From assembly GCA_041656495.1 (NCBI GenBank), contig JBBADJ010000004.1:84644-148643 (forward strand): a stretch of DNA of 64,000 nt. Reading direction: 5' to 3'. The notes under the pieces are model-generated. The model saw only the letters and a list, made by a program, of their open reading frames with translations. It searched no databases and was not told the DNA's origin. How positions within the stretch are numbered: position 1 is the stretch's first letter; every line of letters starts with the position of its first letter. Below, piece by piece: positions 38,898-54,477 of the stretch. The translations under genes were made by a program, and so were the position numbers. Source of the DNA: Candidatus Ratteibacteria bacterium. GTDB taxonomy: Bacteria > Ratteibacteria > UBA8468 > B48-G9 > DTJG01.

Positions 38898-40115
38898 ATG
38901 AAAAAGAATATAAAAACCGCCAATCGTAAATTCATGAGGGAATGGAACCGAAAATTGGTCTTACAACAAATTCGGTCCAGTGGCGAGACTTCGCAAATCA
39001 AACTTGTCAAAAAAACCAAATTAAGCGCTGGTACAATTGTCAATATTACAAAAGAACTCTATAAAGAAAACTTTATCAGATATACAAAGAAAGGAGCCTC
39101 TCTTCGAGGAAGAAAACCGGAAAACTTTACCCTCAATCCTAATGCACGATATGTCATAAGCGTAGCGCTTTTTGCGCTTGAAACACGGATCGCTATTATT
39201 AACTTAAACGAAGAGATACTCCATAAAATCGCATATCCCACAAAATCTCGGCAAGGAGCCAAAGCAGTATTGAAAATTCTTGCGGCAAGAGTAGAAAAAC
39301 TGCTTCAGCAACATTCTATACCCAAAAACAAAGTTCATTCTATTGCAATCGCCATGGAAGGAAGCGTGGATGCGGAAGAAGGCACTTTGAAAATTTCTTC
39401 CCATTTTGGATGGAACAATGTTCCGGTCAAAGATATTCTCGCCACACTTCTTGGTCTTAAAACCTTTGTGGAATCAGAAAACCGAGCAATGGCTATTGGA
39501 GAATATTGGTTTGGAGCAGGAAAAAATACAAATAGTATGCTTTGCGTAGATATAGATTCCGGGATTGGCGCCGCCTTTATAAAAAATGGAGAAGTACATC
39601 ATGGAGCCCACAATTTAGAAGCAGAATTAGGCCATAGTTTGGTATTCACCAATGGCGAGATATGCCGCTGTGGAAGAAAAGGATGTCTTGAGGTGGTAAG
39701 TTCTGGATCAGCAATGATCAAAAAAGTCGCATCCTCTATGACATCGGAACGTGCTAAAAAGTATGGGATTACAAAAAAACTCTCTTCTTTCTCGGAAAGA
39801 GAGGCAATGCGCATCATCTTTCAAATGGCGCAACAGGATGATACTGTCGCAAAAATGGTCCTTAAAGAAGCTGGCTATTATTTAGGATTGAGTATTGCCA
39901 ATATGATTACTTATATTGACCCTGAAATCATTGTACTTGCCGGCTATGTTGCCGAGGAAGATCCAGGGATTCTGCTGAACTTTATACAGGAAACTTATAA
40001 TCAAAAGGTCTTTTTGCCAGATCTGAGAAAGACCCAGATAGTAAAAAGTATTCTCGGCGAAAACAGTGTTCTGATAGGTGGCGCAGAAATTTCTTACAGA
40101 GACATTTTTGAATAG
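38898..40115 (+). CDS. ROK family transcriptional regulator/sugar kinase-like protein
   Basis: N-terminal winged-helix domain. ROK zinc motif CxCGxxGC (CRCGRKGCLE). Confidence 0.75.
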   Translation: MKKNIKTANRKFMREWNRKLVLQQIRSSGETSQIKLVKKTKLSAGTIVNITKELYKENFIRYTKKGASLRGRKPENFTLNPNARYVISVALFALETRIAIINLNEEILHKIAYPTKSRQGAKAVLKILAARVEKLLQQHSIPKNKVHSIAIAMEGSVDAEEGTLKISSHFGWNNVPVKDILATLLGLKTFVESENRAMAIGEYWFGAGKNTNSMLCVDIDSGIGAAFIKNGEVHHGAHNLEAELGHSLVFTNGEICRCGRKGCLEVVSSGSAMIKKVASSMTSERAKKYGITKKLSSFSEREAMRIIFQMAQQDDTVAKMVLKEAGYYLGLSIANMITYIDPEIIVLAGYVAEEDPGILLNFIQETYNQKVFLPDLRKTQIVKSILGENSVLIGGAEISYRDIFE

Positions 40116-40558
40116 AAAAAGCATTGTATTGTTACGATCTGTGATGTTGTAATATTCCACTGTAAATCAGATATTGTTCTTCCCCTTTTTCAATACTCTT
40201 TTTGCACTCTTTTTATCTTGCAATCTTTTCTCTAACTGTAGGATTAAGACAGAAAGAACCAGTGATGGGCTTGCTAAAAAAACACGGGTTTAATCGCAAA
40301 AATCTTTCCTCTTACGTTTATTAAGAATATAAATCTCGCCTGCAAATGTAAAATTCGCTGCATTCTCTATATACAAAACAGGTATATCGGAAGGTAGTGG
40401 AACCAACCAGCATTGAGAATATGACTAAAGCCGAAATTGGTTCGATAGATAATACGGACATGAAATCTTTTTGTTATACGTTTAAAATAAAAAAAAAGTA
40501 TATCGAAAAAGCTTTAAGAAACTTAATAAACGTCCTTTTATTACAGAAAAAACTCATC

Positions 40559-43453
40559 TTAATCTACTACGATTTCATAAACATGTGTTCCGTACCCTTC
40601 AAAGTTATCAGTGAAAAATTTCCCTGAAGCGTGAAGATTTCTGTCCTCAAATAAAATCTTTATTGCCTTGATATTATTAATCAAAGTAAACTTTACTTTT
40701 ATTGGGTTAGTATCTCCATTTACAGCGATAAGGTATTTTTTTCCTTGATATTTTTTCAACATTGTATAAATTTGGTTGTTCTCTGGCAAGATAGAAATAT
40801 TTCCGCACATACTCCCGTTACTAAGCATTGGAGTAAGCTCATTAATTTCACCAATCGGCAAAACTTGTTTATATCTTTCAAGCTGTCCTCTCCAAAGATA
40901 AGGTTGAAATCCTTTTGCACCATTAACTAAGGCTAAATAGTACATAGCCCTTGATTCTATTTTGTTAGGGTATCTTTTTTCTCCATTTGGTCGTGGATGA
41001 GGGCCAAACTCTTCAGGCATAAACCAAACAGGTTTTTTATCTCCAGAAGCTTTCACGGCATGATTAACCATATCTGCCACTAAAGTAATCGGATGCTTTT
41101 CATGTTTATTTTCAGGATCTCTCTGCCTAAGAAAATCAGGATAGTTGTAAAACGGATACGCATCTGGAAAAAGAAAATCTGAACATCTGGCAAAAACAGG
41201 ATAGGCAAGAGGCCACCAATTAGTAACACCAATAGGTCTATAAGGATCTATCTTTTTAAGAAATTGATAAGCCTTATTGTAAATAACTATGTCACTACCT
41301 ATTTCCGGCTCATCAAAAACCCAACACAAAAGGGCTGGATGCGCCATCATGGCAACTACCCACTTGCCAATTATCTCATAATTGCACTCATACATTGCCG
41401 AACGAGGTATCTCCATGGAAACAAAAAGCCCGTTATCTCTTGCTTCATCCAAATATTTAATGGCATTTTCTAAATTCTGTTCATAACTGAGTTTCTTATC
41501 TTGGAAACCCCAGTGATGAATAAAATTTATTCCTAGTGTTTTAGCCCTAGCAACTTGAGTAGGATAAACTCCATAAAATCCGTTAGGAAAAAAAGGCTTA
41601 TTATTTACTAGAAGTATATTATCCTTTCTTACGTTAACCTTGGTTGAGATATCCTCGGTAAGAGTAAAGTACCATTCTTCTTTAACAAGGTTACCCACAT
41701 TATCTTTAATCTCTAAAATTACTTTATGCAAGCCTCTCTGTAATGGTTCTTTCGGAATGTACTTTATTCCCGTCGTAGTGATTTTCAAATCTTCACTAAT
41801 ATTTTTTCCATTAAGTGACAACTTAATGCTCTCTGTATCAATACCACTACCCTTTTGGTTATCTTGAAAATTGGCCGAAATGATTGGTCTGCTATTACTG
41901 GTAGTCCATGGAAATACATTCAAAATGTACGGAGGAGTTGTATCCTTTGCTTCATTCTTTAAGGTAAAGGAAAAAACAGGTGAATTTAACTCTTTTACCT
42001 CAAAAGAAGAACAAAGCGAAATTCGCCAATAATAAGTACCGTCAGATAATTCTTTCAATGGTCTATAACTATCAGAGAGTAAATCGTTTACTCGAAAAAC
42101 TTCTTCTTTGAAATTCTTATCCTTGGAATAGCACAATTGATAAGAAGGATAAATATCTATACCTGCCCATCTTTTATAGTCAGCCCAATTAATAACTCGG
42201 TTAGTCGGAATTGTCCTTTCCCATGAAAAAAGAGGAAAAGAGGTTTGAATTATACTCTTATTAGAAGGAGAAAGCAGACTTATAAAAAATTGAGACGCAA
42301 CTGCTGGTTCTATTCTAAAAAAACTATACCTTGCTGTAGTAGGTCCATTTGCAGCGTAAAGTCCCACTTCCTTAACTGAAAAAGAAGAAGCAAGCCCCAT
42401 GATAGTATAGTTTTCCCCATCTTCACTATACTTAAAAACAATCTTTTCCTTGTGTTTTTCTATCTGAAAATAGATCTCTGATTGAGTATAGACTACTGGC
42501 GGTAAAGTAGTGAACTTCCCTTCTTGAGGACCTCCACAATTTAGTTCATGCGCTGTCCCGTTATAAGTTCTACTAAACTTAAGCCAATTATTCTCATCAC
42601 TCCAGAAATATATACCGGTTTCTTCCCATGCTTTCTGAGGGAAATAGTCCTTTAGTGCCGTAGTTATAACAAATATATCTTCTTTAATTTCATAGGAAAG
42701 TTTAGGGGCGGTAATATTGTCTTTCCACATCCCTGCTTTTGGGGGTGCTTTTATGGTTAAAAACCCCTCTTTCTCTGTCAAACTATAACTACTCCCCTCA
42801 ATAAAGGAATGCTTCCACTTCCATTCGGACGCAAGAGAAAATTTTCTAAAAGTATCTTCAAAAATAAGACCTTTATCCAAACTTGCTGTTTCAGTATCAG
42901 TAAATTCCACATCATCAAACCAGACTGTGCCAGAAGAATCATAGATTTGTATTAAAATAGAAACTCCGGTTGTCCCAGCTGGAGGGCTTATTTCAGTGGT
43001 ACGAAAGGTCCAATTTTTACTTCCCTGCATATCCAGGTTAAATATTCTTCTGCCCTTTGGGGCATAATGAAAAAAAACGGTTGCTAATCCTCCGCTATAG
43101 CCTTTAAGATTATCACTCTTACACCAAAGGCTGAATTTGTATTTCTTCCCTTCTTCTATTAGAACATTATCGTAGATTAATGCCCCTCTCCCTTGTGTAG
43201 GAGATTCAATGCGCATAGATTGTTTCCCACCGTGATAAACTTCTTTGTCAATTGTAAAACATAAACCTGAAGTTCCGCGCCAATTATGAGTTCTCCAATT
43301 TTCAAGACGGCTTTCACTGTCACTTTTTTCAAATCCAGGATTTTTAATAAGGTTTTCTCCCGCATAAACAAAAGAAAAAAGAGTCTGAAAAAAAACCCCT
43401 GTTAACAACATTATTCTTGTTGTTCCAATAAATCTCTTTCCCTTTTTTTCCAT
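40559..43453 (-). CDS. secreted multidomain glycoside hydrolase (clan GH-A-like catalytic domain) with N-terminal CBM4/9-like module
   Basis: Signal peptide. The N-terminal ~170 aa resemble a CBM_4_9 beta-sandwich. The C-terminal ~350 aa look like a (beta/alpha)8 hydrolase with an EP acid/base motif. The GH family is not assigned. Confidence 0.45.
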   Translation of the reverse strand: MEKKGKRFIGTTRIMLLTGVFFQTLFSFVYAGENLIKNPGFEKSDSESRLENWRTHNWRGTSGLCFTIDKEVYHGGKQSMRIESPTQGRGALIYDNVLIEEGKKYKFSLWCKSDNLKGYSGGLATVFFHYAPKGRRIFNLDMQGSKNWTFRTTEISPPAGTTGVSILIQIYDSSGTVWFDDVEFTDTETASLDKGLIFEDTFRKFSLASEWKWKHSFIEGSSYSLTEKEGFLTIKAPPKAGMWKDNITAPKLSYEIKEDIFVITTALKDYFPQKAWEETGIYFWSDENNWLKFSRTYNGTAHELNCGGPQEGKFTTLPPVVYTQSEIYFQIEKHKEKIVFKYSEDGENYTIMGLASSFSVKEVGLYAANGPTTARYSFFRIEPAVASQFFISLLSPSNKSIIQTSFPLFSWERTIPTNRVINWADYKRWAGIDIYPSYQLCYSKDKNFKEEVFRVNDLLSDSYRPLKELSDGTYYWRISLCSSFEVKELNSPVFSFTLKNEAKDTTPPYILNVFPWTTSNSRPIISANFQDNQKGSGIDTESIKLSLNGKNISEDLKITTTGIKYIPKEPLQRGLHKVILEIKDNVGNLVKEEWYFTLTEDISTKVNVRKDNILLVNNKPFFPNGFYGVYPTQVARAKTLGINFIHHWGFQDKKLSYEQNLENAIKYLDEARDNGLFVSMEIPRSAMYECNYEIIGKWVVAMMAHPALLCWVFDEPEIGSDIVIYNKAYQFLKKIDPYRPIGVTNWWPLAYPVFARCSDFLFPDAYPFYNYPDFLRQRDPENKHEKHPITLVADMVNHAVKASGDKKPVWFMPEEFGPHPRPNGEKRYPNKIESRAMYYLALVNGAKGFQPYLWRGQLERYKQVLPIGEINELTPMLSNGSMCGNISILPENNQIYTMLKKYQGKKYLIAVNGDTNPIKVKFTLINNIKAIKILFEDRNLHASGKFFTDNFEGYGTHVYEIVVD

Positions 43454-43513
43454 TTGCACTGCTCCTTCCTTGATTTTTATTCTGAAAAAGATTTGAATAC
43501 ATAATAAAATGGC

Positions 43514-44143
43514 TTATCTCCAGATAATATCGCTTCCAAACATTTTACCGTCAATATTATAGTGGGTATATTTTTTCCAATCTGAATGTCCATCTATAAA
43601 AAGAATATTGTTCCCTCCGTTATGTGGTCCCTGTGCAACATTAACATATTCTGGATATGCAACATTGAAAAAATCAGTACAGCGCCAAGGATAGTTTCTG
43701 TTAGCAGGATCAATATCTGTCAAAAGCAACCATCTATGTGAATTGTTTACACGATCTATCTTTTTCCGAGATAACCAACGATTCATTGTATAGCCTACCT
43801 GATTTGAATATGAATGTTTTAATACAGACGGACATCGGAAAACAGTGTTTCTTTTTCCAGAAGAATCATGAGAGCCTACATATTTTCCAATATAGTTTCC
43901 CCAGTGATCAGCACCTTCTGTAGCAAGTGGTAAATACCCATTGTTTTCTTGAGTATACATAAAAAAAGCTAAATATAGTTGTTTTAAATTATTCACACAT
44001 ACAACGGTTCTTGCTCTTTCTCTTGCTCGTGAGAGCGCGGGCAGAAGCATTGCCGCTAAAATAGCAATGATCGAAATCACTACAAGGAATTCTATCAAGG
44101 TGAATCCATGTGATTTGCGAGAAATCACTTTTCCATTAAACAT
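43514..44143 (-). CDS. prepilin-type N-terminal cleavage/methylation domain protein with H-X9-DG motif
   Basis: [26 protein letters not shown]-terminus. C-terminal [13 protein letters not shown]. Confidence 0.85.
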
Positions 44144-44165
44144 TTTTCACCTCTAAACAGAATGG

Positions 44166-45260
44166 TTACTTATATAATTCGGTTTTTAATCTTAAATACG
44201 GAGAGAGCACTATTTGTGTACTCTTAACTTCCTTTTTTACTATTTTCTCCAATTCTTCAGCAGCAATTTTCCCCAATTCAACGAGAGGCTGTAGTACTTC
44301 GTGTATATATTGTTTTTCTTCATACTTTTGCTCAATTTCATCAAACGTGGCAATCTCTAATTTTGCTGGAAATAAACTTGGGTTCTGTTTTAACCATGGC
44401 AAGATCGCTTCTAAAAACTTCATTCCAGCAACAAGTATGGCTGAGGGTTGATAATCGTCATACATCTTTTCAAATTTCTTATTAAAACCTTCTTTGCTTG
44501 ATAAAAAATCCCAAGCCGCATAACTCTTACTTTCAATTTTTACCACTCCCTCACAGGGAAAATTTTCTTCTATGTTTCCACAGGCTTTCAAAAAACCTTT
44601 AAACCTCTGACGGTAACAAGAAATCTCTTCAATCAATCCAACAAAACCTATTTTTTCATGCCCCTTATTAATAAGGAAATGAGTTATTTCTTCCGCACCC
44701 TTTTCATGGTCGGTGCTAACATAATTAAATTGTTGATTTTTTTCTATTCGATTAATTATAACAATAGGATATCCGATATTCTGTAATTCTTTTATCACTT
44801 CAAAATACTCGGGAAGAGGAAAAATCCACACAATTGCTTCAATCTTAAAGTCTCTGCATTTGCTAAGAAGTTCAGATTTTTGATACGTATATGGAAAAAC
44901 ATGAATACTAATATTGTTCTTTCTAGCATGAATAAGACATCCAGAAATAATAGGGTGAATAAAGGAAACTTCTACATATTCCTGCGGTGGCTGAATAACA
45001 AGCATGTGTAACATTTCAGAGTTCTTGCTTTTATAATTTTTTCTTATAAAGGTACCTTTACCTTGCAATCTAATAACAGCAAATTCTTTTTCAAGTTCTA
45101 CAAGAGCCTTACGAACAGTAATATGGCTAACCGAAAAAAGAGAAGCCAACTGTCTTTCTGTTGGTAATTGTTCTCCTTCCATACCCTTTTCGATCAGTTC
45201 TAAAAGGTAATTCTTAATTTTTTCATAAAGAAAAATCTTACGAGTTGAAAGCTTTTCCAT
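44166..45260 (-). CDS. GntR-family transcriptional regulator with C-terminal periplasmic-binding-protein-like (LacI-type) sensor domain
   Basis: N-terminal GntR HTH (QLPTERQLASLFSVSHITVRKAL). About 360 aa. Confidence 0.65.
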   Translation of the reverse strand: MEKLSTRKIFLYEKIKNYLLELIEKGMEGEQLPTERQLASLFSVSHITVRKALVELEKEFAVIRLQGKGTFIRKNYKSKNSEMLHMLVIQPPQEYVEVSFIHPIISGCLIHARKNNISIHVFPYTYQKSELLSKCRDFKIEAIVWIFPLPEYFEVIKELQNIGYPIVIINRIEKNQQFNYVSTDHEKGAEEITHFLINKGHEKIGFVGLIEEISCYRQRFKGFLKACGNIEENFPCEGVVKIESKSYAAWDFLSSKEGFNKKFEKMYDDYQPSAILVAGMKFLEAILPWLKQNPSLFPAKLEIATFDEIEQKYEEKQYIHEVLQPLVELGKIAAEELEKIVKKEVKSTQIVLSPYLRLKTELYK

Positions 45261-45530
45261 ACTTATATTATATATTATAAATAAAAATAGTCAAGTGTTA
45301 AAATAGAAAGAACAAATGGATTTCGGTTCTGTCAAGATTTTTCTGTAACTTGCCTTCTGTTATGGTGTTATTGTGATAAATTCATGATCTCTGATCTTCT
45401 GTAGCTATGCCTTCTGGCGATACTTCTTTTTCAAGTAGTCTATAGTACCCCTTGTTGTAAGCCTATCCTACAAACATCCCTCTTCTCTATCCTTGATCTA
45501 TTCCCGTAATAGTGAAAACTTCCTCTCTTG

Positions 45531-46280
45531 TTACGGATAGACTGCAGGAGGATCTCTAGGAACTGTTTTATCAGGCCGTGGATCAATCCGTACTGTTCTG
45601 TCAATTACATAGCCGGTCTGGTAGGTGCCTGTCATCATATCATTCATTTCGCAGGGCCTCCACTCTACATGGCCGTCGCAGAAGAGAATATTGGTTCCTC
45701 CATTATGGTTTGCCGCGCTTACATCACTGCGAAGACGGGAAGGTTCCCGTATATAAAATGTCCAAGAGTAGCCGCTGAGAGAGACACAGGCAACAAGAAG
45801 CGTATTTCCCGGTTCTTTCAGATTGCCTGCTTTTATCCATGGATAGGTGTACCAATTAGTTGATACCTGGGGAAGCTGTACATTATATCCATAACTACCG
45901 AAAGATTGAGTAACAGATTGGTGAATTTTATCAGATCCGCACCAGAAGGGAAGATTGCTCCGTTTTGCTACAGGAACTTGATAAGCATAGGTGTAAGCTC
46001 CAAGATATTTTCCATTCCTTTTCACGCCCATTGCTTCGGCGATAAGGTCAAACCAGTAGAAAGCTTGATAATATCTTGAAGGAGGATAAAAATCATCATA
46101 ATCATTATTATAGACCGCGAATCCTATTGCCATCTGTTTCAGATTGCTCATACAGACTGCCTGACGCGCCTTTTCTCTTGCTCGTGAGAGCGCGGGCAGA
46201 AGCATTGCCGCTAAAATAGCAATAATCGCAATAACAACCAAGAGTTCTATTAAGGTAAAACCACTGCATTTTTTTTTCAT
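45531..46280 (-). CDS. prepilin-type N-terminal cleavage/methylation domain protein with H-X9-DG motif (paralogue)
   Basis: [26 protein letters not shown]-terminus. [13 protein letters not shown] near the C-terminus. Shares a 51-bp identical DNA stretch with 43514-44143. Confidence 0.85.
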
Positions 46281-47155
46281 TCATCCCTCCATAGATAGAA
46301 AGAAATTCTTTCTATACATTTATTTTAACTATTGTTTTGGCATCCCTCCTTGTCGCTCAAAAAATGGAAACAAATTATCTTCATCTTTATTTCCTAATAG
46401 AATCGCCTCGCACAATGCAATAGCTCAACTCCTTTCCTGCAGTTACAATCCCTGTTCTACAAGATCTTTTACATTTGCCGGACTTCGGCTCCAAAAGCAC
46501 AATCAAAAGCAATTCAGGAACAATGCTACTTTTCAGCAGAATGGTTATTATGCGAAAGAAAGGAACTCTTTCTATTCCGAAGATTTAGAAGATAATCTCT
46601 TTTTGCGACAACTCTTTTCATTTCTATAACCATTGAATCACCCGTAAAACAGGTCATATTATGGGAAAAAATGTTTTTCAAAGAGAATCTCTCTGACGAC
46701 ATACCATACTTCAAAGTAGTGGCAGTGATACCATGAGAAAAGAGAAGTTTTGTTTGTGGAAAAGTGTAAAAGGGTAGAAGAATAGAAGTGCGAAAAATCT
46801 GGAAACTATGAAAAAAGATAAAGGAAGTAGAGAAAGAGCGAAGCTGAATAACGGAAAAAGAGAATAATGCCTTAATAAAAGAAATACTTTGACTCTCTAT
46901 CTGTCTATGCATTGGCCTCATCCTTTCTGCTTTTATCAGAGGCTACTCGCAATGGCTTCCTTGATAAATTCACTGTACCATGCCAAGAGATTTTGTCAAA
47001 CACCACTGCCCTCATTAGAAATCTATAGGAAAATGTTCGCCTGTAAAAAGAAGCGAATATAAATAAGAGGAAATATCCATACGGATTCCTATTTTTTTAT
47101 CCGATCTGCAGGATGTCTTGTTTCTTATGAAATTCTTAAGAAAAACAGAGAAAAC

Positions 47156-47184
47156 TTGACAATACAATTTTTTGTTAGTATAAA
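47156..47184 (+). promoter_or_regulatory. sigma70-like promoter TTGACA-N17-TATAAA upstream of hicB
   Basis: Read directly from the sequence: TTGACA at 47156-47161 and TATAAA at 47179-47184. Confidence 0.35.
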
Positions 47185-47196
47185 ATAAGAAAAAAG

Positions 47197-47514
47197 GTGC
47201 GATGGGGAGATATGAAAAATAAATATACTTATTATTTTGCTATAATAATAGAGAAGGGAGAAGATGGATATATGTCTTATGCTCCTGGCGTGGGTGGCGT
47301 GTATGAAGAAGGGGCAACAAAAAAAGAAGCTATAGAAAACGCATACAAAGCAGCATGCGCTATTTTAGAAACTCGGATACAACGTAACGACCCACTTACT
47401 GAAAATAATAAATACCTTAGAGTTATAACTTCCGTACCAAACTATAAAGAAATTAATGAGTTTAGTAATATCATTCCTGATGGTTATATTTATACATCTT
47501 TTTGTACCCCCTAA
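47197..47514 (+). CDS. hicB: HicB-family antitoxin (UPF0150)
   Basis: Small protein with HicB-like pattern (YAPGVGGVYEEGATKKEAIENAYKA). Overlaps the downstream hicA-like gene. The start is either GTG 47197 or ATG 47212. Confidence 0.6.
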   Translation: MRWGDMKNKYTYYFAIIIEKGEDGYMSYAPGVGGVYEEGATKKEAIENAYKAACAILETRIQRNDPLTENNKYLRVITSVPNYKEINEFSNIIPDGYIYTSFCTP

Positions 47515-47804
47515 CTATGTTTCCTTTCATAAAAAAAGAATGGAGTAAATCTGAGTGGGGGCAATTAAAAAATCTTACCCCGAAAGATTTAATTACTCTT
47601 CTCAAGAAAGATACTCGTTGGGAATTGGTAAAAACAAAAGGTTCACGTTATATATTTTATAATGTAAAATTGGAAACACCTTACCAATATTTAGAAATTC
47701 ACCACCATAAAAAAGGGTATAGAAACAAAGGTTTACTGAAAAGTATTTTAGATCAATGGTGTTGCACGAAAAATGATTTTAAAAAATGGAATGTAATTAA
47801 ATAG
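47502..47804 (+). CDS. hicA: HicA-like (YcfA family) mRNA-interferase toxin
   Basis: YcfA/HicA pattern LLKKDTRWELVKTKGSRYIF...HHHK...LLKSIL. The canonical GSHH is replaced by GSRY. Confidence 0.5.
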   Translation: MYPLTMFPFIKKEWSKSEWGQLKNLTPKDLITLLKKDTRWELVKTKGSRYIFYNVKLETPYQYLEIHHHKKGYRNKGLLKSILDQWCCTKNDFKKWNVIK

Positions 47805-48002
47805 ATGTTTTACTTATAAAGATTTTGAACCTATTATGCTTGACAAGAGTTTCACAAACCTCATCAGATGAAAATACCTTGATTTTCCTTTCTCCTCTTA
47901 GTTGTTCTTTGGACAACCACTGCTGTAATAACTGCAATTATAGTCCTTTGGATTTTTATAAAATCTTTCTATTGGGATTCTCTACTTAATTAAACCAGTT
48001 TT

Positions 48003-48306
48003 GGGTGGGTGAGGAGATGTTGGCGCCCCTCACTTTCGGAACGTTCGGGGTCGGACACACGTTGGCAATCCTGCCTCTTCGTCGGGTTTCCTGACTTCGC
48101 TCCTTTCAAATCCCCTGAAGGAAATCTTTTTTGGGTCAATGGGAAGAAATAGTTCAAACCTCTAAGATAACCTGTCCGGAGTTTTTGAAGAAGATAAATA
48201 CATTTTGTACATCTATCACTTAAAAGAATAAAATCAGCTCGTGTAACCTCCTCCTCTTTGTAAACTATCCAATCTTCATACACTTACTTCCAATTTCTGT
48301 ATGAGA
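48003..48306 (+). repeat. att-like repeat copy A: tRNA-His 3'-end core (GGGTGGGTGAGGAGA) plus ~290 bp extension
   Basis: Direct repeat of copy B (49935-50183) with a ~65-bp insertion. Contains the hairpin GTGAGGAG / CCCCTCAC. Confidence 0.7.
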
Positions 48307-48522
48307 CTATCTCCTATGCTTAGAGAAAAAGTAGTAGTCTTATAGGTAAAAAAAACTAAAACCACCGAGCTATAAATGTTTCGCTATCTCTTCTTCTCAT
48401 TTTGCCCCCTTTAATACTTTTAAATTATTATACATCTAAAAGCCCTGTCCAGTTTTGAAGACAACTTCATTTTTTCGTCTAAATTTATTATGAGGTAATT
48501 CGTTTTCTTGACAAAAAGAATA

Positions 48523-49140
48523 ATGTCAGTTAAAATATTTAGCAATATGGCTAAATTACTGAATTGGATAAATGCTGAAAAAAAAATAAGAGATTGCGGA
48601 ATTACAATATTCTCTCCTGTTGATCTGAAACGAATATTTGGAGTTTCAGAAGTATCTGTCCGTTTTTTTCTAACGAGATATGTCAAAAAAGGAGCAATTG
48701 TTAAGTTGCGTAACAGCCTTTATACGTTAAATAACAATATCCCTTCAGAGGTTGAGATTGCGAACGCTCTTTATCGTCCGTCATATATTTCTCTTACTTA
48801 TGCACTTGCATATTACCATATTATTCCGGAAATGGTTTACTCTATTACATCAGTAACTACTCTTCCGACAGCAAGATTTAACGCTATAAACAAGGAATTT
48901 CGTTACCATAAAATAAAGGCATCTGTTTTTACTGGATATTCGCCTGTGAAAATTGAAGGCAAAACAATACTTTTTGCATGTAAAGAAAAAGCTTTTGTGG
49001 ATTATCTTTATTTTGTTCTAAGAAAATCCTATAAATTAAATGAAAGAATTGATATTTCTGGACTTGATAAAAAAGAATTAACTAAATATGTTAAATTGTT
49101 TAACAATAAAGGAATAAATGAATTAATTGAGAGGATATAA
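48523..49140 (+). CDS. AbiEi-family antitoxin/transcriptional regulator (type IV TA)
   Basis: About 200 aa with AbiEi-like architecture. Its stop overlaps the start of the AbiEii gene (ATAATG). The track ORF starts at a TTG at 48508. Confidence 0.5.
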   Translation: MSVKIFSNMAKLLNWINAEKKIRDCGITIFSPVDLKRIFGVSEVSVRFFLTRYVKKGAIVKLRNSLYTLNNNIPSEVEIANALYRPSYISLTYALAYYHIIPEMVYSITSVTTLPTARFNAINKEFRYHKIKASVFTGYSPVKIEGKTILFACKEKAFVDYLYFVLRKSYKLNERIDISGLDKKELTKYVKLFNNKGINELIERI

Positions 49141-49865
49141 TGTTAGGTAGAGAGATTATAAAGCAGATGGCTATTCAAAAAAAAACAACTGAGATAAATA
49201 TTGCTCGAGAATATATTCAACATCTATTTTTGTCTTTTTTTTATCAAGAAAGAAAGTCAGAACAGGTGCTTTTTAAGGGCGGAACTGCTTTGCGGATTGC
49301 TTACCTTAGCCCTCGTTTTTCTGAAGACCTTGATTTTTCAGGGTTTAATATAAAAATAGAAGAGTTAGAAACAATATTGATAAATATAATGAGCAAACTA
49401 GATAAAATGGGCGTTATTGTGGATTTATCAGAGAGTAAAAAAACTTCAGGAGGATATATTGGAGCTATCAATGCAGAATTTTCTGGGTATAAGACTCGGA
49501 TACTTCTTGAGGTTTCATTTCGTAAAAGAAAGACAAAAATTGCTGGAGAGCCAATGCTAATAGCGAGTGATTTTCTGCCTCCTTATACAATTTCTATACT
49601 TCCATCTAAAGACTTAATTGATGAAAAACTCTCAGCTGTGTTAACACGGGCAAAGGCGAGGGATTATTACGACCTTTATTTTCTTCTTCGTAAAGGTCTT
49701 ATTACAGTTGAACAGAGAAAGTGTCTTAATAGTATCAAAGAAAAAATAAAAAATGACAAAGTATATATAGAAAAAGAGCTAAAAGATTTTCTCCCTGCTG
49801 ACCAACAAAAACTTATTAGAAATTTTAATGAAATCTTGCTAAGAGAAGTTTCTCAATACGTGTAG
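49140..49865 (+). CDS. AbiEii/AbiGii-family nucleotidyltransferase toxin (DUF1814)
   Basis: Motifs GGTALRIAYLSPRFSEDLDF and RDYYDLYFLL. 241 aa. Confidence 0.7.
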   Translation: MLGREIIKQMAIQKKTTEINIAREYIQHLFLSFFYQERKSEQVLFKGGTALRIAYLSPRFSEDLDFSGFNIKIEELETILINIMSKLDKMGVIVDLSESKKTSGGYIGAINAEFSGYKTRILLEVSFRKRKTKIAGEPMLIASDFLPPYTISILPSKDLIDEKLSAVLTRAKARDYYDLYFLLRKGLITVEQRKCLNSIKEKIKNDKVYIEKELKDFLPADQQKLIRNFNEILLREVSQYV

Positions 49866-49934
49866 TATATGATATCAGTAAACTATATTTTATTTTGCCT
49901 TCCGCTCAAAGACTTGTCTTGTAAAAAAACAAAA

Positions 49935-50183
49935 GGGTGGGTGAGGGGATGTTGGCGCCCCTCACTTTCGAAGCGTTCGGGGTCGGACATCCGCTAGCAA
50001 TCCAGTGGATCAATGGGAGGAGGTAGTTCAAACCTCTAAGATAACCTGTTCGGAGTTTTTGAAGAAGATAAATACATTTTGTGCATCTATCACTTAAAAC
50101 TATAAAATCAGCTCGTGTAGCCTCCTCCTCTTTGTAAACTATCTAATCTCCAACCATTTATTTCCAATTTCTAAAGTATGAGT
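49935..50183 (+). repeat. att-like repeat copy B (tRNA-His 3'-end core plus extension)
   Basis: About 90% identical to copy A. Has the perfect 8-bp hairpin GTGAGGGG-N9-CCCCTCAC. Confidence 0.7.
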
Positions 50184-50208
50184 TTCTCTATTGCCCAATA
50201 TCTATCTT

Positions 50209-51663
50209 TTATTTTTCTGAAAGCCCCAGAACTTTTGCTATACCTTTACCATATGCAGGATCGGCTTTCATACAATTGGATATATGTCTCTCTTTTATCT
50301 CTGTTGGTATATCTCCCATATGTCGAGCGGTATTTTCAAATAAAGTTTGCTGTTGTTCTGGAGACATTAATCTAAAAAGTTTACCTGGTTGAGTGTAATA
50401 ATCATCATCGTCTTCTCTATAATTCCATCTATCAGCTTCTCCATAAATCTTTAGAGGTGGTTCTTTAAACTCAGGCTGCTCTTTCCATTTACCATAACTA
50501 TTTGGTTCATAGTGGAGTTTACTTCCAGCATTTCCATCTACTCGCATCAGCCCGTCTCTATGATAACTGTTGGTAGGAAATTTGGGTGCATTTACAGGAA
50601 TCAAATGATGGTTGACACCCAATCTGTATCTCTGTGCGTCACCATAAGAAAATAATCTTCCTTGAAGCATTCTATCAGGAGAAAAACCTATCCCGGGCAC
50701 AACATTTGCTGGATTAAAAGCTGATTGTTCAACTTCTGCAAAATAGTTTTCTGGATTTCTGTTAAGTTCAAAATAACCAACCTCTATAAGAGGAAAATCT
50801 TTCTTATACCATATTTTTGTAAGGTCAAACGGGTTGTAAGGCATATTTTGTGCCTCTTCTTCTGTCATAACCTGTATATACATTTTCCATTTAGGAAATT
50901 TGCAGTTACGTATATTTTCAAAAAGGTCTCTCTGGTTGCTCTCTCTATCTTTTGCAATTACTGCTTCAGCTTCGGCATCAGTCAGGTTTTTAATACCCTG
51001 TTGGCAGACAAGGTGAAACTTTACCCATACCCTACAATTATTTTCGTTTATCATACTGAATGTATGACTTCCAAATCCATGCATATGCCTGTAAGAATAA
51101 GGAATACCTCTATCGCTCATCGTTATGGTAATCTGGTGGAGAGCTTCAGGAAGCAGAGTCCAAAAATCCCAATTGTTCTTAGCGCTCCTCATATTAGTGT
51201 GCGGGTCTCGCTTTACAGCGTGGTTTAGGTCTATAAATTTTAAAGGGTCCCGGAAGAAGAATACAGGCGTATTATTCCCTACAAGATCCCAATTGCCTTC
51301 TTCGGTATAAAACTTCATTGCAAAACCTCTTATATCCCTTTCAGCGTCCGCTGCTCCTCGTTCTCCTGCTACGGTTGAAAAACGCACAAACATTTCTGTC
51401 TTTTTCCCAATTTGAGAGAAGATTTTCGCTTTTGTATATTTTGTTATATCATGAGTAACAGTGAAAGTGCCGTAAGCTCCAGAACCTTTAGCGTGCATAC
51501 GCCTTTCAGGAATTACTTCTCTATCAAAGTGCGCCATCTTTTCAAGAAACCAGACATCTTGCAGAAGCATCGGTCCACGTGGACCTGCTGTCATAGAGTC
51601 CTGGTTATTTGAAACAGGAGCACCTGCTGCAGTAGTCATTTTATTCATATCTTTTTTTTCCAT
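50209..51663 (-). CDS. katA: monofunctional heme catalase
   Basis: Full-length catalase similarity (RERIPERVVHAKG-like region, [18 protein letters not shown], distal His/Asn, proximal Tyr region). GGAGGA ribosome-binding site. Confidence 0.9.
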
Positions 51664-51777
51664 AAATTTCCTCCAATTTATTCTTTGAATTGAAATTCTC
51701 TATTTTATTTGTTATAGGATTCAATCTTATATCATATAAGAAATATTATATAATTCCAATTTTTACACGTAACCTTT

Positions 51778-52158
51778 TTATTTTTTATACTTATAAGTTT
51801 TTATTATAACAATATGAACTGTAACCGCAATTACAATAAAAATTAGAATAGATTTTAGCCATAAAGGTTTTATGATAAAAAAAACAGTAAACATTATGGT
51901 TGCCCATAACAGAATAATTGTATACAATTTCTGTTTTAATGGTATTCCTTTACCTTGTAAATAGTTTCTTATGTATTGCCCACAAAACTTATTACCTATC
52001 AACCAGTTATAAAAGTTTTCAGAACTGCGAGAGTAACAAAAAGCTGCAAGTAAAAGAAAGGGGGTGGTGGGAAGAATTGGAACAAAAATACCTATGATGC
52101 CTAAGATAACAGAGAGGGTTCCTGCTATTATTAGTAGTTTTTGCTTGACTTGTTTCAT
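51778..52158 (-). CDS. DUF454 (YbaN-like) inner-membrane protein
   Basis: Hallmark ILPTTPFLLLAAFCYSRSS. 126 aa with four transmembrane helices. Directly upstream of the catalase on the same strand. Confidence 0.65.
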   Translation of the reverse strand: MKQVKQKLLIIAGTLSVILGIIGIFVPILPTTPFLLLAAFCYSRSSENFYNWLIGNKFCGQYIRNYLQGKGIPLKQKLYTIILLWATIMFTVFFIIKPLWLKSILIFIVIAVTVHIVIIKTYKYKK

Positions 52159-52431
52159 CCAATAAAATTAACATTTCAAAGAAAGAAAAACAAATTTTAA
52201 AATGAGAAATTTCTTATAAAGGCAAGTATTATATCCCCCTACACCAATGAACTACTTAGAATCTTTATTCCGTAAAAATAATTCTGTTTTGCGGCGCTTC
52301 TCAGAAGAAAAAAGCCGTTATTGCCTTCACGTTCCAACTCAAAAATTGAACAACTTTTAAGATACGCAGGAAGAAGATGGTAACCTGGCTTTCAATTTAA
52401 CAAGTGATAGCATTAACACTAAAAACTGCCA

Positions 52432-52446
52432 GGGTGGGTGAGGGGA
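52432..52446 (+). repeat. att-like core copy C (GGGTGGGTGAGGGGA)
   Basis: Exact copy of the last 15 nt of the tRNA-His gene (as read on the + strand). Sits between the DUF454/catalase cassette and the next TA-like pair. Confidence 0.6.
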
Positions 52447-52755
52447 TTGTGCGGCTGAAATACGCTACGAACGGTCTCCGCTTATAAGAGAAGTGTCTTT
52501 AGTCGGATAGAACCATTGTTCGCCCCCCTACCCCTTCAAGAAGATTACAAAACTGGGTCATTGGAGGGATAAAACTCAGAAGATACTTCTTACTGAATCT
52601 AACTTTAAAAAAAACCTAAACAGATTACCTTTTCTAACACCTTAAACTGGTTTACAACCCATAACCTGCCTGCCCTTTCTACGCATCTATTTTTGTCTAA
52701 AAAAACGTTGATAAAGTGTTACCTATATACCCATATACCCAACTGATACATATAC

Positions 52756-52784
52756 TTGGCTTATACAACAATGTTTGGTATAAT
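52756..52784 (+). promoter_or_regulatory. promoter TTGGCT-N17-TGgTATAAT (extended -10)
   Basis: Read directly from the sequence. Followed by an AGGAGG Shine-Dalgarno at 52796-52801. Confidence 0.35.
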
Positions 52785-52788
52785 ACTT

Positions 52789-53196
52789 ATGAAACAGGAG
52801 GTTATCTTGAGCATAGTAATCAAAACAATAGGGAAACAACAATATGCATATCAGGCTTATCGTAATGGGAACAGGATAGTGCAGAAATATCTGGGAAATA
52901 TTGCCGACAATAAGGTGAAAAAAATGCTGGAAGAATTAAAAAGAACGAATCAAGTGCAACAACGATTCTATCCCTTATTCTGGGACGTAGAACCTAACAA
53001 GATTAACATTCGCAAAAATGCCAGATATATTATTGAGCGTGTCCTGGAAGTGGGAGACACAGCCGCATTTCAATGGATACAAAATATGTATCCAACGCGT
53101 TTGATTCTGGATACATGCAACACAAGCCGAAAAATATCCGAAAAATCAAGAATATTCTGGAAAATCTGGCTGGGGGAAATGTCCAATGCACAATGA
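52789..53196 (+). CDS. small protein, putative antitoxin/regulator partner of the downstream nucleotidyltransferase
   Basis: Overlaps the downstream AbiEii-like gene by 11 nt. No HTH recognised. The start is uncertain: ATG 52789, or TTG 52807 after the SD. Confidence 0.35.
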   Translation: MKQEVILSIVIKTIGKQQYAYQAYRNGNRIVQKYLGNIADNKVKKMLEELKRTNQVQQRFYPLFWDVEPNKINIRKNARYIIERVLEVGDTAAFQWIQNMYPTRLILDTCNTSRKISEKSRIFWKIWLGEMSNAQ

Positions 53197-53839
53197 ATGT
53201 TTTCCAAAAAAAGGTATAGACGTTTTAAAACGATTGAAACCTATTATCAAGACACGCCGTTTCATTTTAGCCGGTGAAACCGCCGCCGCAATACAGATTG
53301 GACATAGGATATCTGAAGATCTTGATTTCTTTGCCGCTCAGTCGTTTTCAACCGATGAAATTCTCAATGAAATTAAACAACAGAAACTTAATTTTTCACT
53401 TCTACAGGAAGAACAGAATACATTGACAAGCATTATAGAAAATACCAAGGTATCTCTATTTTGCTACCCCTACCCTTTCATTGAGAAATACGTCAGTTGG
53501 CAAGGCATTTCAGTTGCCAGTCTTACGGATATCGCCTCCATGAAGGTTATTGCCATAAGCCAACGAGGGGCGAAAAGAGATTTTGTTGATATGTATTTTA
53601 TTCTACGTTCAATACCATTTTGGAGAATTGCCGATAATATGATTCAACGCTTTGGAACTGCCAGAATCAACCCCGTGCATATTGGTAAATCGTTGGTATA
53701 CTTTCATGATGCTGAAGTTGACCCAGACCCTCATTACTGTTTGGGATACGAAACAAATTGGCAAGCTATCAAAGTATTTTTCATAAACCATGTTCAGCAA
53801 TTGGTAATAGATTTGCAGAGAGCAAAAGAAACAGGATAA
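53186..53839 (+). CDS. AbiEii-like nucleotidyltransferase (short form)
   Basis: Shares GxTAxxxxxxxRxSEDLDFF and (K/A)RDF(V/Y)DMYF(I/L)L motifs with the 49140-49865 product. Confidence 0.55.
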   Translation: MHNECFPKKGIDVLKRLKPIIKTRRFILAGETAAAIQIGHRISEDLDFFAAQSFSTDEILNEIKQQKLNFSLLQEEQNTLTSIIENTKVSLFCYPYPFIEKYVSWQGISVASLTDIASMKVIAISQRGAKRDFVDMYFILRSIPFWRIADNMIQRFGTARINPVHIGKSLVYFHDAEVDPDPHYCLGYETNWQAIKVFFINHVQQLVIDLQRAKETG

Positions 53840-53909
53840 CTGTTTATATCAAAACGTAATGTTCCAACTAAATCCTCCAGAAATAAGTGCACCGCAACGA
53901 TTTCAGGCT

Positions 53910-54296
53910 GGGTGGGTGAGGGGATGTTGGCGCCCTCGCTTCCCACTACAGCTCGGGTCGGCCACTCGCTGGCAATCCTGCCTCTTCGTCGGATTGCCTG
54001 ACTTCGCTCAATTCAAATCCCCTGAAGGAAAACTTTTTGGGTGGGTGAGGGGATGTTGGCGCCTTCGCCTTTCGATACGGCTCAGGTCGGCCACTCGCTG
54101 GCAATCCTGCCTCTTCGTCGGATTGCCTGACTTCGCTCAATTCAAATCCCCTGAAGGAAAACTTTTTGGGTGGGTGAGGGGATGTTGGCGCCCCTCACTT
54201 TCGGAACGTTCGGGGTCGGCCATCCGCGAAGATTGCTGCGCTCACTCGCAATCTTTCCACTTCGCTCCTTTCAAATCCCCTGAAGGAAAACTTTTT
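53910..54296 (+). repeat. three tandem 129-bp repeat units, each beginning with the tRNA-His 3'-terminal 15-16 nt
   Basis: Unit starts at 53910, 54039 and 54168. Each ends with TTCAAATCCCCTGAAGGAAAACTTTTTG. The first third of each unit is variable. Confidence 0.8.
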
Positions 54297-54370
54297 GGGT
54301 GGGTGAGGGGATTTGAACCCCCGACATCCAGAGCCACAGTCTGGCGCTCTGCCCCTGAGCTACACCCACC
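54297..54370 (-). tRNA. tRNA-His (anticodon GUG) with encoded G-1
   Basis: Manual fold of the reverse complement: acceptor GUGGGUG/CACCCAC with G-1:C73, D-stem GCUC/GAGC, anticodon stem CCAGA/UCUGG, loop CUGUGGC (GUG), T-arm GGGGG-UUCAAAU-CCCCU. Confidence 0.85.
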
Positions 54371-54477
54371 ATATAACTGTAAACTACTATATCTTACCTT
54401 GTTTCAGTGATTTGTAAAGATACTACTGTGTTCTAAGAAAAAACTCTTCTCTGCAAGAAAAAAATGAAGTTATGATA

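Follow-up and report, generated by a model that had tools for sequence, protein, structure and literature searches.

The 6.3-kb segment 48003-54312 of a genomic contig from Candidatus Ratteibacteria bacterium is probably an island anchored at a tRNA-His gene, assembled through a series of site-specific integrations, with the recombinase genes since lost. The segment lies in a 64,000-nt stretch (NCBI GenBank assembly GCA_041656495.1, contig JBBADJ010000004.1, positions 84,644 to 148,643 of the forward strand), hereafter the window, to which all coordinates refer unless a locus number is given. Seven copies of the tRNA 3′ end, including the tRNA itself, divide it into six segments, namely three cargo modules and three cargo-less units of 129 nt. 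A first-pass annotation of this DNA had described one of these modules, a two-gene AbiEi/AbiEii toxin–antitoxin pair flanked by two direct repeats (copies A and B), as an apparent mobile defence cassette that could be excised by recombination between the repeats. The repeats are real, lying in direct orientation with ~90% identity over ~250-300 bp, far beyond chance, though their homology is split into two blocks. The AbiE pair, its foreign-looking DNA, the attachment-site-like core of the repeats and the sequence exchange between A and B all suit a mobile defence cassette, but the proposed cassette is not self-contained: its repeats are two of the seven tRNA-His 3′-end copies in the larger island. 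The architecture is that of a known kind of island and not of a new mobile cassette.

Seven copies of the tRNA-His 3′ end partition the island

The anchor of the array is an intact tRNA-His (GTG) gene on the minus strand (54297..54369), predicted by ARAGORN and scoring 66.8 bits against the Rfam tRNA family. Its last 16 nt, comprising the end of the T-loop, the 3′ strands of the T-stem and the acceptor stem, the discriminator and one more base, form the core of the array, and the 16-mer GGGTGGGTGAGGGGAT, which is the reverse complement of the tRNA 3′ end, opens every copy. This 16-mer occurs seven times in a single orientation, always within 48003-54312 and nowhere else in the window, with 0 occurrences in shuffled sequence. 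The cores start at 48003, 49935, 52432, 53910, 54039, 54168 and 54297 (the last being the tRNA itself) and are 100% identical in six of the seven copies, the one at 48003 having a single mismatch.

Copy A (48003..48306, minus strand), whose core is the most distal from the tRNA, consists of the core (48003-48018), a 113-nt arm of the kind found in the cargo-less units (48019-48131) and a 170-nt block (48132-48306). Copy B (49935..50183, minus strand) has a core without mismatch (49935-49950), only that half of the unit arm which adjoins the core (to 50003), and the 170-nt block (50006-50183), which ends 26 nt past the catalase stop codon. Relative to A, copy B has a 58-nt deletion between the half arm and the block; the ~58-60 nt at 48072-48131 are present in A and missing from B, so that the homology falls into two blocks. 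The first covers 69 nt (48003-48071 versus 49935-50003) and the second 177 alignment columns with one 3-nt gap (48132-48305 versus 50006-50182; E = 6e-65), each at 90% identity and in direct orientation. A BLAST comparison of copy A with the whole window revealed that its first 132 nt recur three times head to tail at 83-85% identity (53910-54041, 54039-54170 and 54168-54299), adjoining the tRNA-His gene. These recurrences correspond to three tandem units on the minus strand (53910..54296), each made of a core and a 113-nt arm: U3 (53910-54038), U2 (54039-54167) and U1 (54168-54296). U2 and U3 are 93% identical, and U1 is 64-66% identical to both. A further core copy, S (52432..52448, minus strand), is identical to the tRNA 3′ end over 17 nt, and its adjacent arm is unrelated to the unit.

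Over the 53 nt adjacent to the core, copies A and B share 89% identity, U2 and U3 85%, and U1 and either of the other units 57-62%, while S matches every other copy at 17-30%, which is chance level. The copies thus include at least two unrelated types of arm that have nothing but the core in common, as predicted for a recombination core and not for a segmental duplication. Rather than forming the two ends of one private cassette, copies A and B are the core-adjacent arms of two neighbouring modules. The first-pass annotation had named cargo-free copies elsewhere as evidence against its cassette, and such copies exist: three cargo-free versions of the core-proximal 130 nt of A lie beside the tRNA, and a sister species has another.

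Other identities for the repeats were rejected. No terminal inverted repeats were found at the ends of A or B, and the repeated flank is a 16-nt tRNA end instead of a 2-10-nt target-site duplication, which argues against a miniature inverted-repeat transposable element or an insertion sequence. The 170-nt block has no protein or RNA signature, and its RNA folds no better than shuffled sequence. It does not appear to be a gene fragment such as an excisionase or integrase remnant, as the minus-strand open reading frame (ORF) through it (47990-48283) lacks any Pfam or PHROG match even at E = 10 and copy B has a stop codon in that frame. A decayed tRNA half at the end of the block was likewise discarded, since its local alignment to the tRNA was matched by 792 of 1000 shuffles. 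At the junction between the block and the unit, a positional match to the core at 9 of 15 sites (background 0.24% per position) is only suggestive of a decayed core, which would fit an older element accreted onto a resident unit.

Cargo and base composition of the modules

In the direction of the tRNA (window minus strand), the island runs from tRNA-His through U1-U3 to a DUF6922/AbiEii-like pair, a DUF454 gene with a catalase gene, and the AbiEi/AbiEii pair. The DUF6922 module ends at core S, the DUF454/catalase module in copy B and the AbiE module in copy A. Within the AbiE module, the AbiEi antitoxin (48547..49140, plus strand, 197 aa, with alternative upstream starts at 48523 and 48508) matches the PADLOC AbiEi model at 4e-43 over residues 27-194 and is weak in other libraries (Pfam AbiEi_4 at 6e-4, below the cut-off; NCBIfam TAA_AbiEi at 25 bits against a 150-bit cut-off). 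The AbiEii (DUF1814) nucleotidyltransferase toxin (49140..49865, plus strand, 241 aa) matches Pfam PF08843 at 2.7e-28 (99.9 bits against a cut-off of 22.5) and PADLOC AbiEii at 2.5e-28 over residues 1-236, and keeps the nucleotidyltransferase motifs GGTALRIAYLSPRFSEDLDF and RAKARDYYDLYF (GGTAL...SEDLDF and RAKARDYYD in translation). As first annotated, this two-gene module lies between the repeats with its stop and start overlapping in ATAATG (TAA and ATG, 49138-49142, with a shared A). The accompanying statement that the repeats bracket it exactly is approximate, as gaps of ~240 nt (copy A to the AbiEi start) and 69 nt (AbiEii stop to copy B) remain on the two sides. A promoter-like site, TTGACA-17-TAAAAT (48508..48536, plus strand), fits the consensus at 11 of 12 positions directly upstream of the AbiEi ATG and is kept in the AbiE pairs of other organisms. 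Its -10 element ends 10 nt before the ATG (48536-48547), an arrangement also seen in L030 (related loci fetched for comparison are numbered with the prefix L), and the AbiEi mRNA may be leaderless or nearly so.

Characterised relatives of AbiEii modify tRNA acceptor stems or ends and are neutralised through antitoxin-induced auto-phosphorylation (PMC7450476, PMC10435456, PMC11375011, bioRxiv 10.64898/2026.01.19.700257). By homology, the protein encoded here would be a translation-blocking nucleotidyltransferase toxin acting on tRNA acceptor ends, paired with an autoregulating antitoxin and serving abortive-infection defence. The type IV label given to it in the first-pass annotation is the classical name, and a 2026 preprint argues from the induced auto-phosphorylation that AbiE belongs to type VII (bioRxiv 10.64898/2026.01.19.700257). 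Judged from their sequences, the AbiE proteins themselves appear ordinary, with nothing unusual about them; beyond the species, the closest homologues share 72% identity and are frequent in environmental metagenome-assembled genomes (MAGs). At the DNA level, AbiE pairs of other organisms are 73% identical over ~1335 nt, from the promoter to the toxin stop only (48507-49865), with the homology to L028-L036 beginning at 48507-48530, and they lie in unrelated contexts with no tRNA fragments. Because the shared DNA covers only the promoter and the two genes, the AbiE cargo and the arms have separate histories.

Some of these foreign AbiE pairs are themselves flanked by direct repeats of ~53 nt with 94% identity (L028 63-115/3692-3743, L033 4131-4182/5676-5728 and L034 369-420/1914-1966). 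Kinship with A and B was rejected, since they look like short, genome-specific, palindromic interspersed repeats (e.g. CCCCCTTTGAAAAAGGGGG) that are unrelated to A/B and not derived from a tRNA. Some of their motifs (GGATTGCC, GAGCGAAG and CGACGAAG) recur in the 129-nt unit, and a distant kinship is possible.

The middle module carries the catalase (50209..51663, minus strand; Pfam Catalase 3.7e-189) and, upstream of it, a DUF454 membrane protein (51778..52158, minus strand; Pfam PF04304 1.1e-38). The module nearest the units carries a DUF6922 protein (52756..53196, plus strand; Pfam PF21956 5.6e-15), the putative antitoxin of a second pair, and a second AbiEii-family nucleotidyltransferase of 217 aa (53186..53839, plus strand; Pfam PF08843 1.8e-12; PADLOC AbiEii 1.9e-10). 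The coding sequences of both toxins stop ~70 nt short of a core, AbiEii 69 nt before copy B and the second toxin 70 nt before U3.

The first-pass annotation had also called the AbiE cassette more AT-rich than its surroundings. This holds against the bulk of the window (30.8% GC versus ~42%) but less so against its closer neighbours, since the modules range from 30.8 to 37.8% GC (35-38% for those other than AbiE) and the DNA to the left of the AbiE module (40-48 kb) has 35.1%. The AbiE module is therefore the extreme of a ~15-kb low-GC tract and not a sharp island of its own.

Comparison with strains, a sister species and other organisms

Same-species loci were sought with AbiEii, the catalase, HicA, DUF454 and a flanking PALP gene as queries. 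The same module order was found in assemblies from ENA, JGI, NCBI and Logan wherever contigs were long, and short contigs break in the repeats. An assembly artefact was rejected as an explanation of the array, as ENA, JGI and NCBI assemblies of different samples agree on this order. The number of units differs, with two in L002, three in the window and in L001, and four in L003 (two of U1 type and two of U2 type), although such counts could reflect repeat collapse in the assemblies. Strain L003 has a mosaic copy B: of the 26 positions at which A and B differ in the window, 14 carry the A variant; these cluster toward the core, and the last eight informative sites are all of B type. Copies A and B therefore exchange sequence.

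The lineage is poorly sampled, and only one close relative was found, a sister species whose flanking PALP protein is 93% identical and whose flanks are ~90% identical in DNA; the next PALP homologue is only 57% identical. At this site the sister species has tRNA-His and exactly one unit, 87-90% identical to those of the window and ending in a slightly degenerate core, ATCCTCTCACCCACC. The DNA beyond the unit, over the 680 nt before the contig ends, is absent from the window and holds none of the cargo. A 29-nt stretch beyond the sister unit matches part of the interval from copy A to the AbiEi promoter at 90% identity (L024 3085-3113 versus window 48326-48354, E = 3.7e-4, in inverted relative order); it may reflect either chance or a shared ancestry of the flanks.

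A further arm context came from another organism, in which a DUF6922/toxin pair (L049) is 79.5% identical in DNA to the second module of the window. There, 18 nt identical to the tRNA-His 3′ end overlap the stop codon of the toxin gene, agreeing with the window in side and orientation, and beyond this core lies a different arm rich in GC hairpins. An 11-bp GC-rich hairpin adjoins the L049 core (CAGGAAGGGGGG-GCGGGAG-CCCCCCTCCTG, L049 2385-2439) and is reminiscent of the hairpin that overlaps the core in the unit (GTGAGGGG-9 nt-CCCCTCAC); a core-side hairpin may be common to these arms. A DUF6922/toxin pair of 69% identity in another Ratteibacteria MAG has housekeeping genes as neighbours and no core in its vicinity.

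Origin of the island

Under the explanation we favour, accretion at tRNA-His, each integration would duplicate the 16-17-nt core and thereby divide the island into modules by direct cores, with older modules pushed away from the tRNA by later integrations. Copies A and B would each represent an arm, made of core, unit arm and 170-nt block, from one of two related modules with different cargo, and they would be ~90% alike over 250-300 nt because the AbiE and catalase modules share one arm type. The AbiE pair would form a self-contained module with its own promoter. Directly observed are the anatomy of the repeats, the identity of the tRNA, the protein families, the comparisons among strains and species, and the lack of a recombinase in the window; we infer that a recombinase performed these integrations in the order given, with the modules mobilised in trans or in cis. 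Toxin–antitoxin addiction would further stabilise the island against deletion between A and B, and two such pairs acting in this way would fit the absence of strains that lack them.

In support of accretion, the locus combines an intact tRNA gene with direct repeats of its 3′ end, a sister-species site without the cargo, and atypical composition, as expected of a tRNA island. Its cargo modules are bounded by cores on both sides and encode no recombinase, as expected of cis-mobilizable elements (CIMEs). The low GC content together with cargo typical of islands (two toxin–antitoxin pairs and a stress gene) was counted in its favour, as was the L049 pair, which abuts the same tRNA-His core beside a different arm.

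Several observations weigh against this explanation. Among the ORFs of at least 90 aa in the window, none matches an integrase, recombinase or transposase domain, and thus no integrase gene lies within or beside the island as in a typical tRNA island; such domains were likewise not found in the related loci fetched. The first-pass annotation had proposed a search for loci in which A and B are fused, and among ~6-8 independent assemblies we found neither such a junction nor a circular one nor the loss of any module, the AbiE module included. Lacking both an encoded recombinase in the window and an A/B fusion, present-day mobility is unsupported. The low-GC, strain-variable tract also runs 8 kb past the last core, to ~40 kb, and no second core was found on the far side of the L049 module. 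Searches for the repeat family in genome, metagenome, viral, plasmid and phage collections found no further member: genome contigs gave 11 chance matches in coding DNA, the metagenome and viral scans were empty, and plasmid and phage collections matched the catalase gene only; no intact parent element is known. Lastly, the cargo-less units are not predicted by simple integration and excision, yet they are conserved in the sister species.

The length of the A/B homology, 250-300 nt and thus far longer than a recombination core, raises an alternative in which the AbiE module entered without a site-specific recombinase, by homologous (Campbell-type) insertion through a single crossover in ~300 nt of homology to the region downstream of catalase, or by local segmental duplication, so that the tRNA-like 16-mer would be just part of the duplicated block. 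The lack of a recombinase agrees with this, the mosaic copy B of L003 confirms that A and B exchange homologously, and the unit number changes in whole 129-nt steps, as by unequal crossing-over. We nevertheless consider it unlikely, because it leaves unexplained core S (52432-52448), where 17 nt agree with the tRNA and the rest of the unit has no counterpart, the L049 core beside a third kind of arm, and perfect cores next to arms that differ by 10-36%; moreover, the 10% divergence between A and B would require a diverged donor in any case. The units themselves invite another alternative, namely that the 129-nt sequence is functional, either as an RNA co-transcribed with tRNA-His and ending in a tRNA-like acceptor/T-arm helix (GUGAGGGG-9 nt-CCCCUCAC-CCACCC) or as a structured DNA site, with the copies under selection and the cargo inserted among them. 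Its conservation in the sister species is about like that of flanking coding DNA, both unit sequence types keep an 8-bp central hairpin despite their differing arms, the first 12 nt of the unit are perfectly antisense to the tRNA T-loop and T-stem, and two of the three cargo modules carry a gene of the AbiEii family, characterised members of which target the acceptor ends of tRNAs (PMC7450476, PMC10435456). An apparent covariation in the hairpin, with five of eight pairs changed on both sides, was downgraded and gives no firm sign of selection for structure, as the 5′ arms are offset by 1 nt and in an alternative alignment, which would explain the difference as a rearrangement, the U1 5′ segment matches the U2 loop and 3′ arm at 14 of 17 positions. 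The tRNA-like terminal hairpin is disrupted in U2 and U3, folding energies are unremarkable (z -0.04 to -1.8), and searches of Rfam 15 with the unit and the 170-nt block returned only tRNA matches, both at the gathering threshold and up to E = 5. With the copy number varying freely between strains and copies A and B partly decayed or deleted, a functional unit of this kind appears quite improbable.

The organisation of the modules also resembles what an integron-like platform would produce, in which core and arm serve as an attC-type site and a recombinase encoded elsewhere captures promoter-bearing cassettes beside tRNA-His. Each one- or two-gene module is followed by a conserved repeat of 130-300 nt, the arms are rich in hairpins, no recombinase is present in cis, and toxin–antitoxin cargo is typical of chromosomal cassette arrays. 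However, no IntI-like gene is present in the window, the unit ends (GGGTGGGT... / ...CTTTTTGG) did not fit the attC R″/R′ consensus RYYYAAC...GTTRRRY on manual inspection, the cargo genes lie on both strands relative to the repeats, and the module order is identical in all strains with no shuffling, which leaves this alternative barely credible. That the unit is a working part, whether as a mimic of the tRNA-His end, retained next to the tRNA as a landing pad for recombinase-in-trans capture of small promoter-bearing modules, or as a source of tRNA-like decoy RNAs that interact with both neighbouring AbiEii-family tRNA-modifying toxins, is in our judgment very improbable; if true, the landing-pad version would be a tRNA-anchored analogue of an integron that captures defence and stress modules.

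Relation to known systems

The closest parallels lie in elements that accrete at the 3′ ends of RNA genes. The ssrA islands of Dehalococcoides stand in tandem downstream of a tRNA-like gene, are bordered by ~20-bp direct repeats of the gene 3′ end after insertion in the T-loop and have a conserved motif beside each repeat; 16 of them retain an integrase, and the 15 without integration modules were read as cis-mobilizable elements joined by accretion (PMC3146451). The array described here likewise consists of tandem, strain-variable, low-GC modules bordered by repeats of a gene 3′ end, with a core that starts in the T-loop and extends one base past the discriminator, which agrees with the integration position reported for islands in ssrA and tRNA genes (PMC3146451). 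It differs in its target, which is tRNA-His and not tmRNA, in its smaller modules (1.5-2.5 kb, one or two genes), in its long arm (130-300 nt), in the cargo-less 129-nt tandem units and in the lack of an integrase from every module. In the CIMEs of Streptococcus, integration and transfer genes have been lost and attL/attR-type repeats remain in tandem at the 3′ end of the target gene (PMC5704250). Core-bounded modules without a recombinase, their tandem placement at a tRNA gene and accretion are features in common (PMC5704250), whereas a CIME is defined by working att sites and by mobilisation through a neighbouring integrative and conjugative element (ICE) or an integrative and mobilizable element (IME), and neither a helper element nor excision was observed here.

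Prochlorococcus tycheposons are also tandem, separated by partial tRNAs and accompanied by degenerate remnants, and carry defence and stress cargo (bioRxiv 10.1101/2020.12.28.424599). Their defining tyrosine recombinase and replication genes are absent here, and the host belongs to a different phylum, Candidatus Ratteibacteria. As the window has no integrase, the feature cannot be filed as an ICE, an IME, a prophage, a satellite or a tycheposon. Integron cassettes share with the array the short modules, a conserved hairpin-capable repeat, toxin–antitoxin cargo and the lack of a recombinase inside the modules; unlike them, the array has no IntI or attI, no attC consensus and mixed gene orientation, and its repeat core is the end of a tRNA gene. 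The AbiE pair itself resembles AbiE and MenAT (DUF1814) systems in being bicistronic with an overlapping stop and start, in its nucleotidyltransferase motifs and in its own promoter, as far as its sequence reveals.

Neighbouring features and gene calls

An ORF of 183 aa on the plus strand (53859-54410) runs through the three units and the antisense strand of tRNA-His and would encode a repetitive peptide (GWVRGCWRP...) with no family match. Though it is called as a gene in public assemblies, the call is almost certainly spurious and owed to the repeats.

Several features lie to the left of copy A. The stretch ~39000-48000, at ~35% GC, may be an older part of the island without a recognisable core. 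Within it, strain L003 has a TylF-type methyltransferase (L003 4700-6300) in place of the GH43/CBM protein, pseudopilin and GntR/LacI-type regulator of the window (40559-45260). Just outside copy A, a HicB-like/HicA-like pair (47197-47804, plus strand) has Pfam matches of 6.6e-5 and 1.7e-5, below the curated cut-offs; it would be a third toxin–antitoxin pair at the island edge, and its HicA part is not called as a gene in L003. In two DUF1559 paralogues (43514-44143 and 45531-46280), the N-terminal prepilin-type methylation regions account for a 92-nt repeat of 89% identity (44017-44108 and 46172-46263).

Implications

The array offers concrete junctions for excision tests and flags the spurious 183-aa gene for annotation. 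The copy-number-variable 129-nt units are its only feature that current models explain poorly. As an accreted tRNA island, the locus would extend the accretion and decayed-element model to very small modules of one or two genes in an uncultured lineage. It illustrates the organisation of defence and stress genes in the barely studied candidate phylum Ratteibacteria, with two AbiE-type pairs and a catalase as separate plug-in modules behind one tRNA gene and copies of the tRNA end as their borders.

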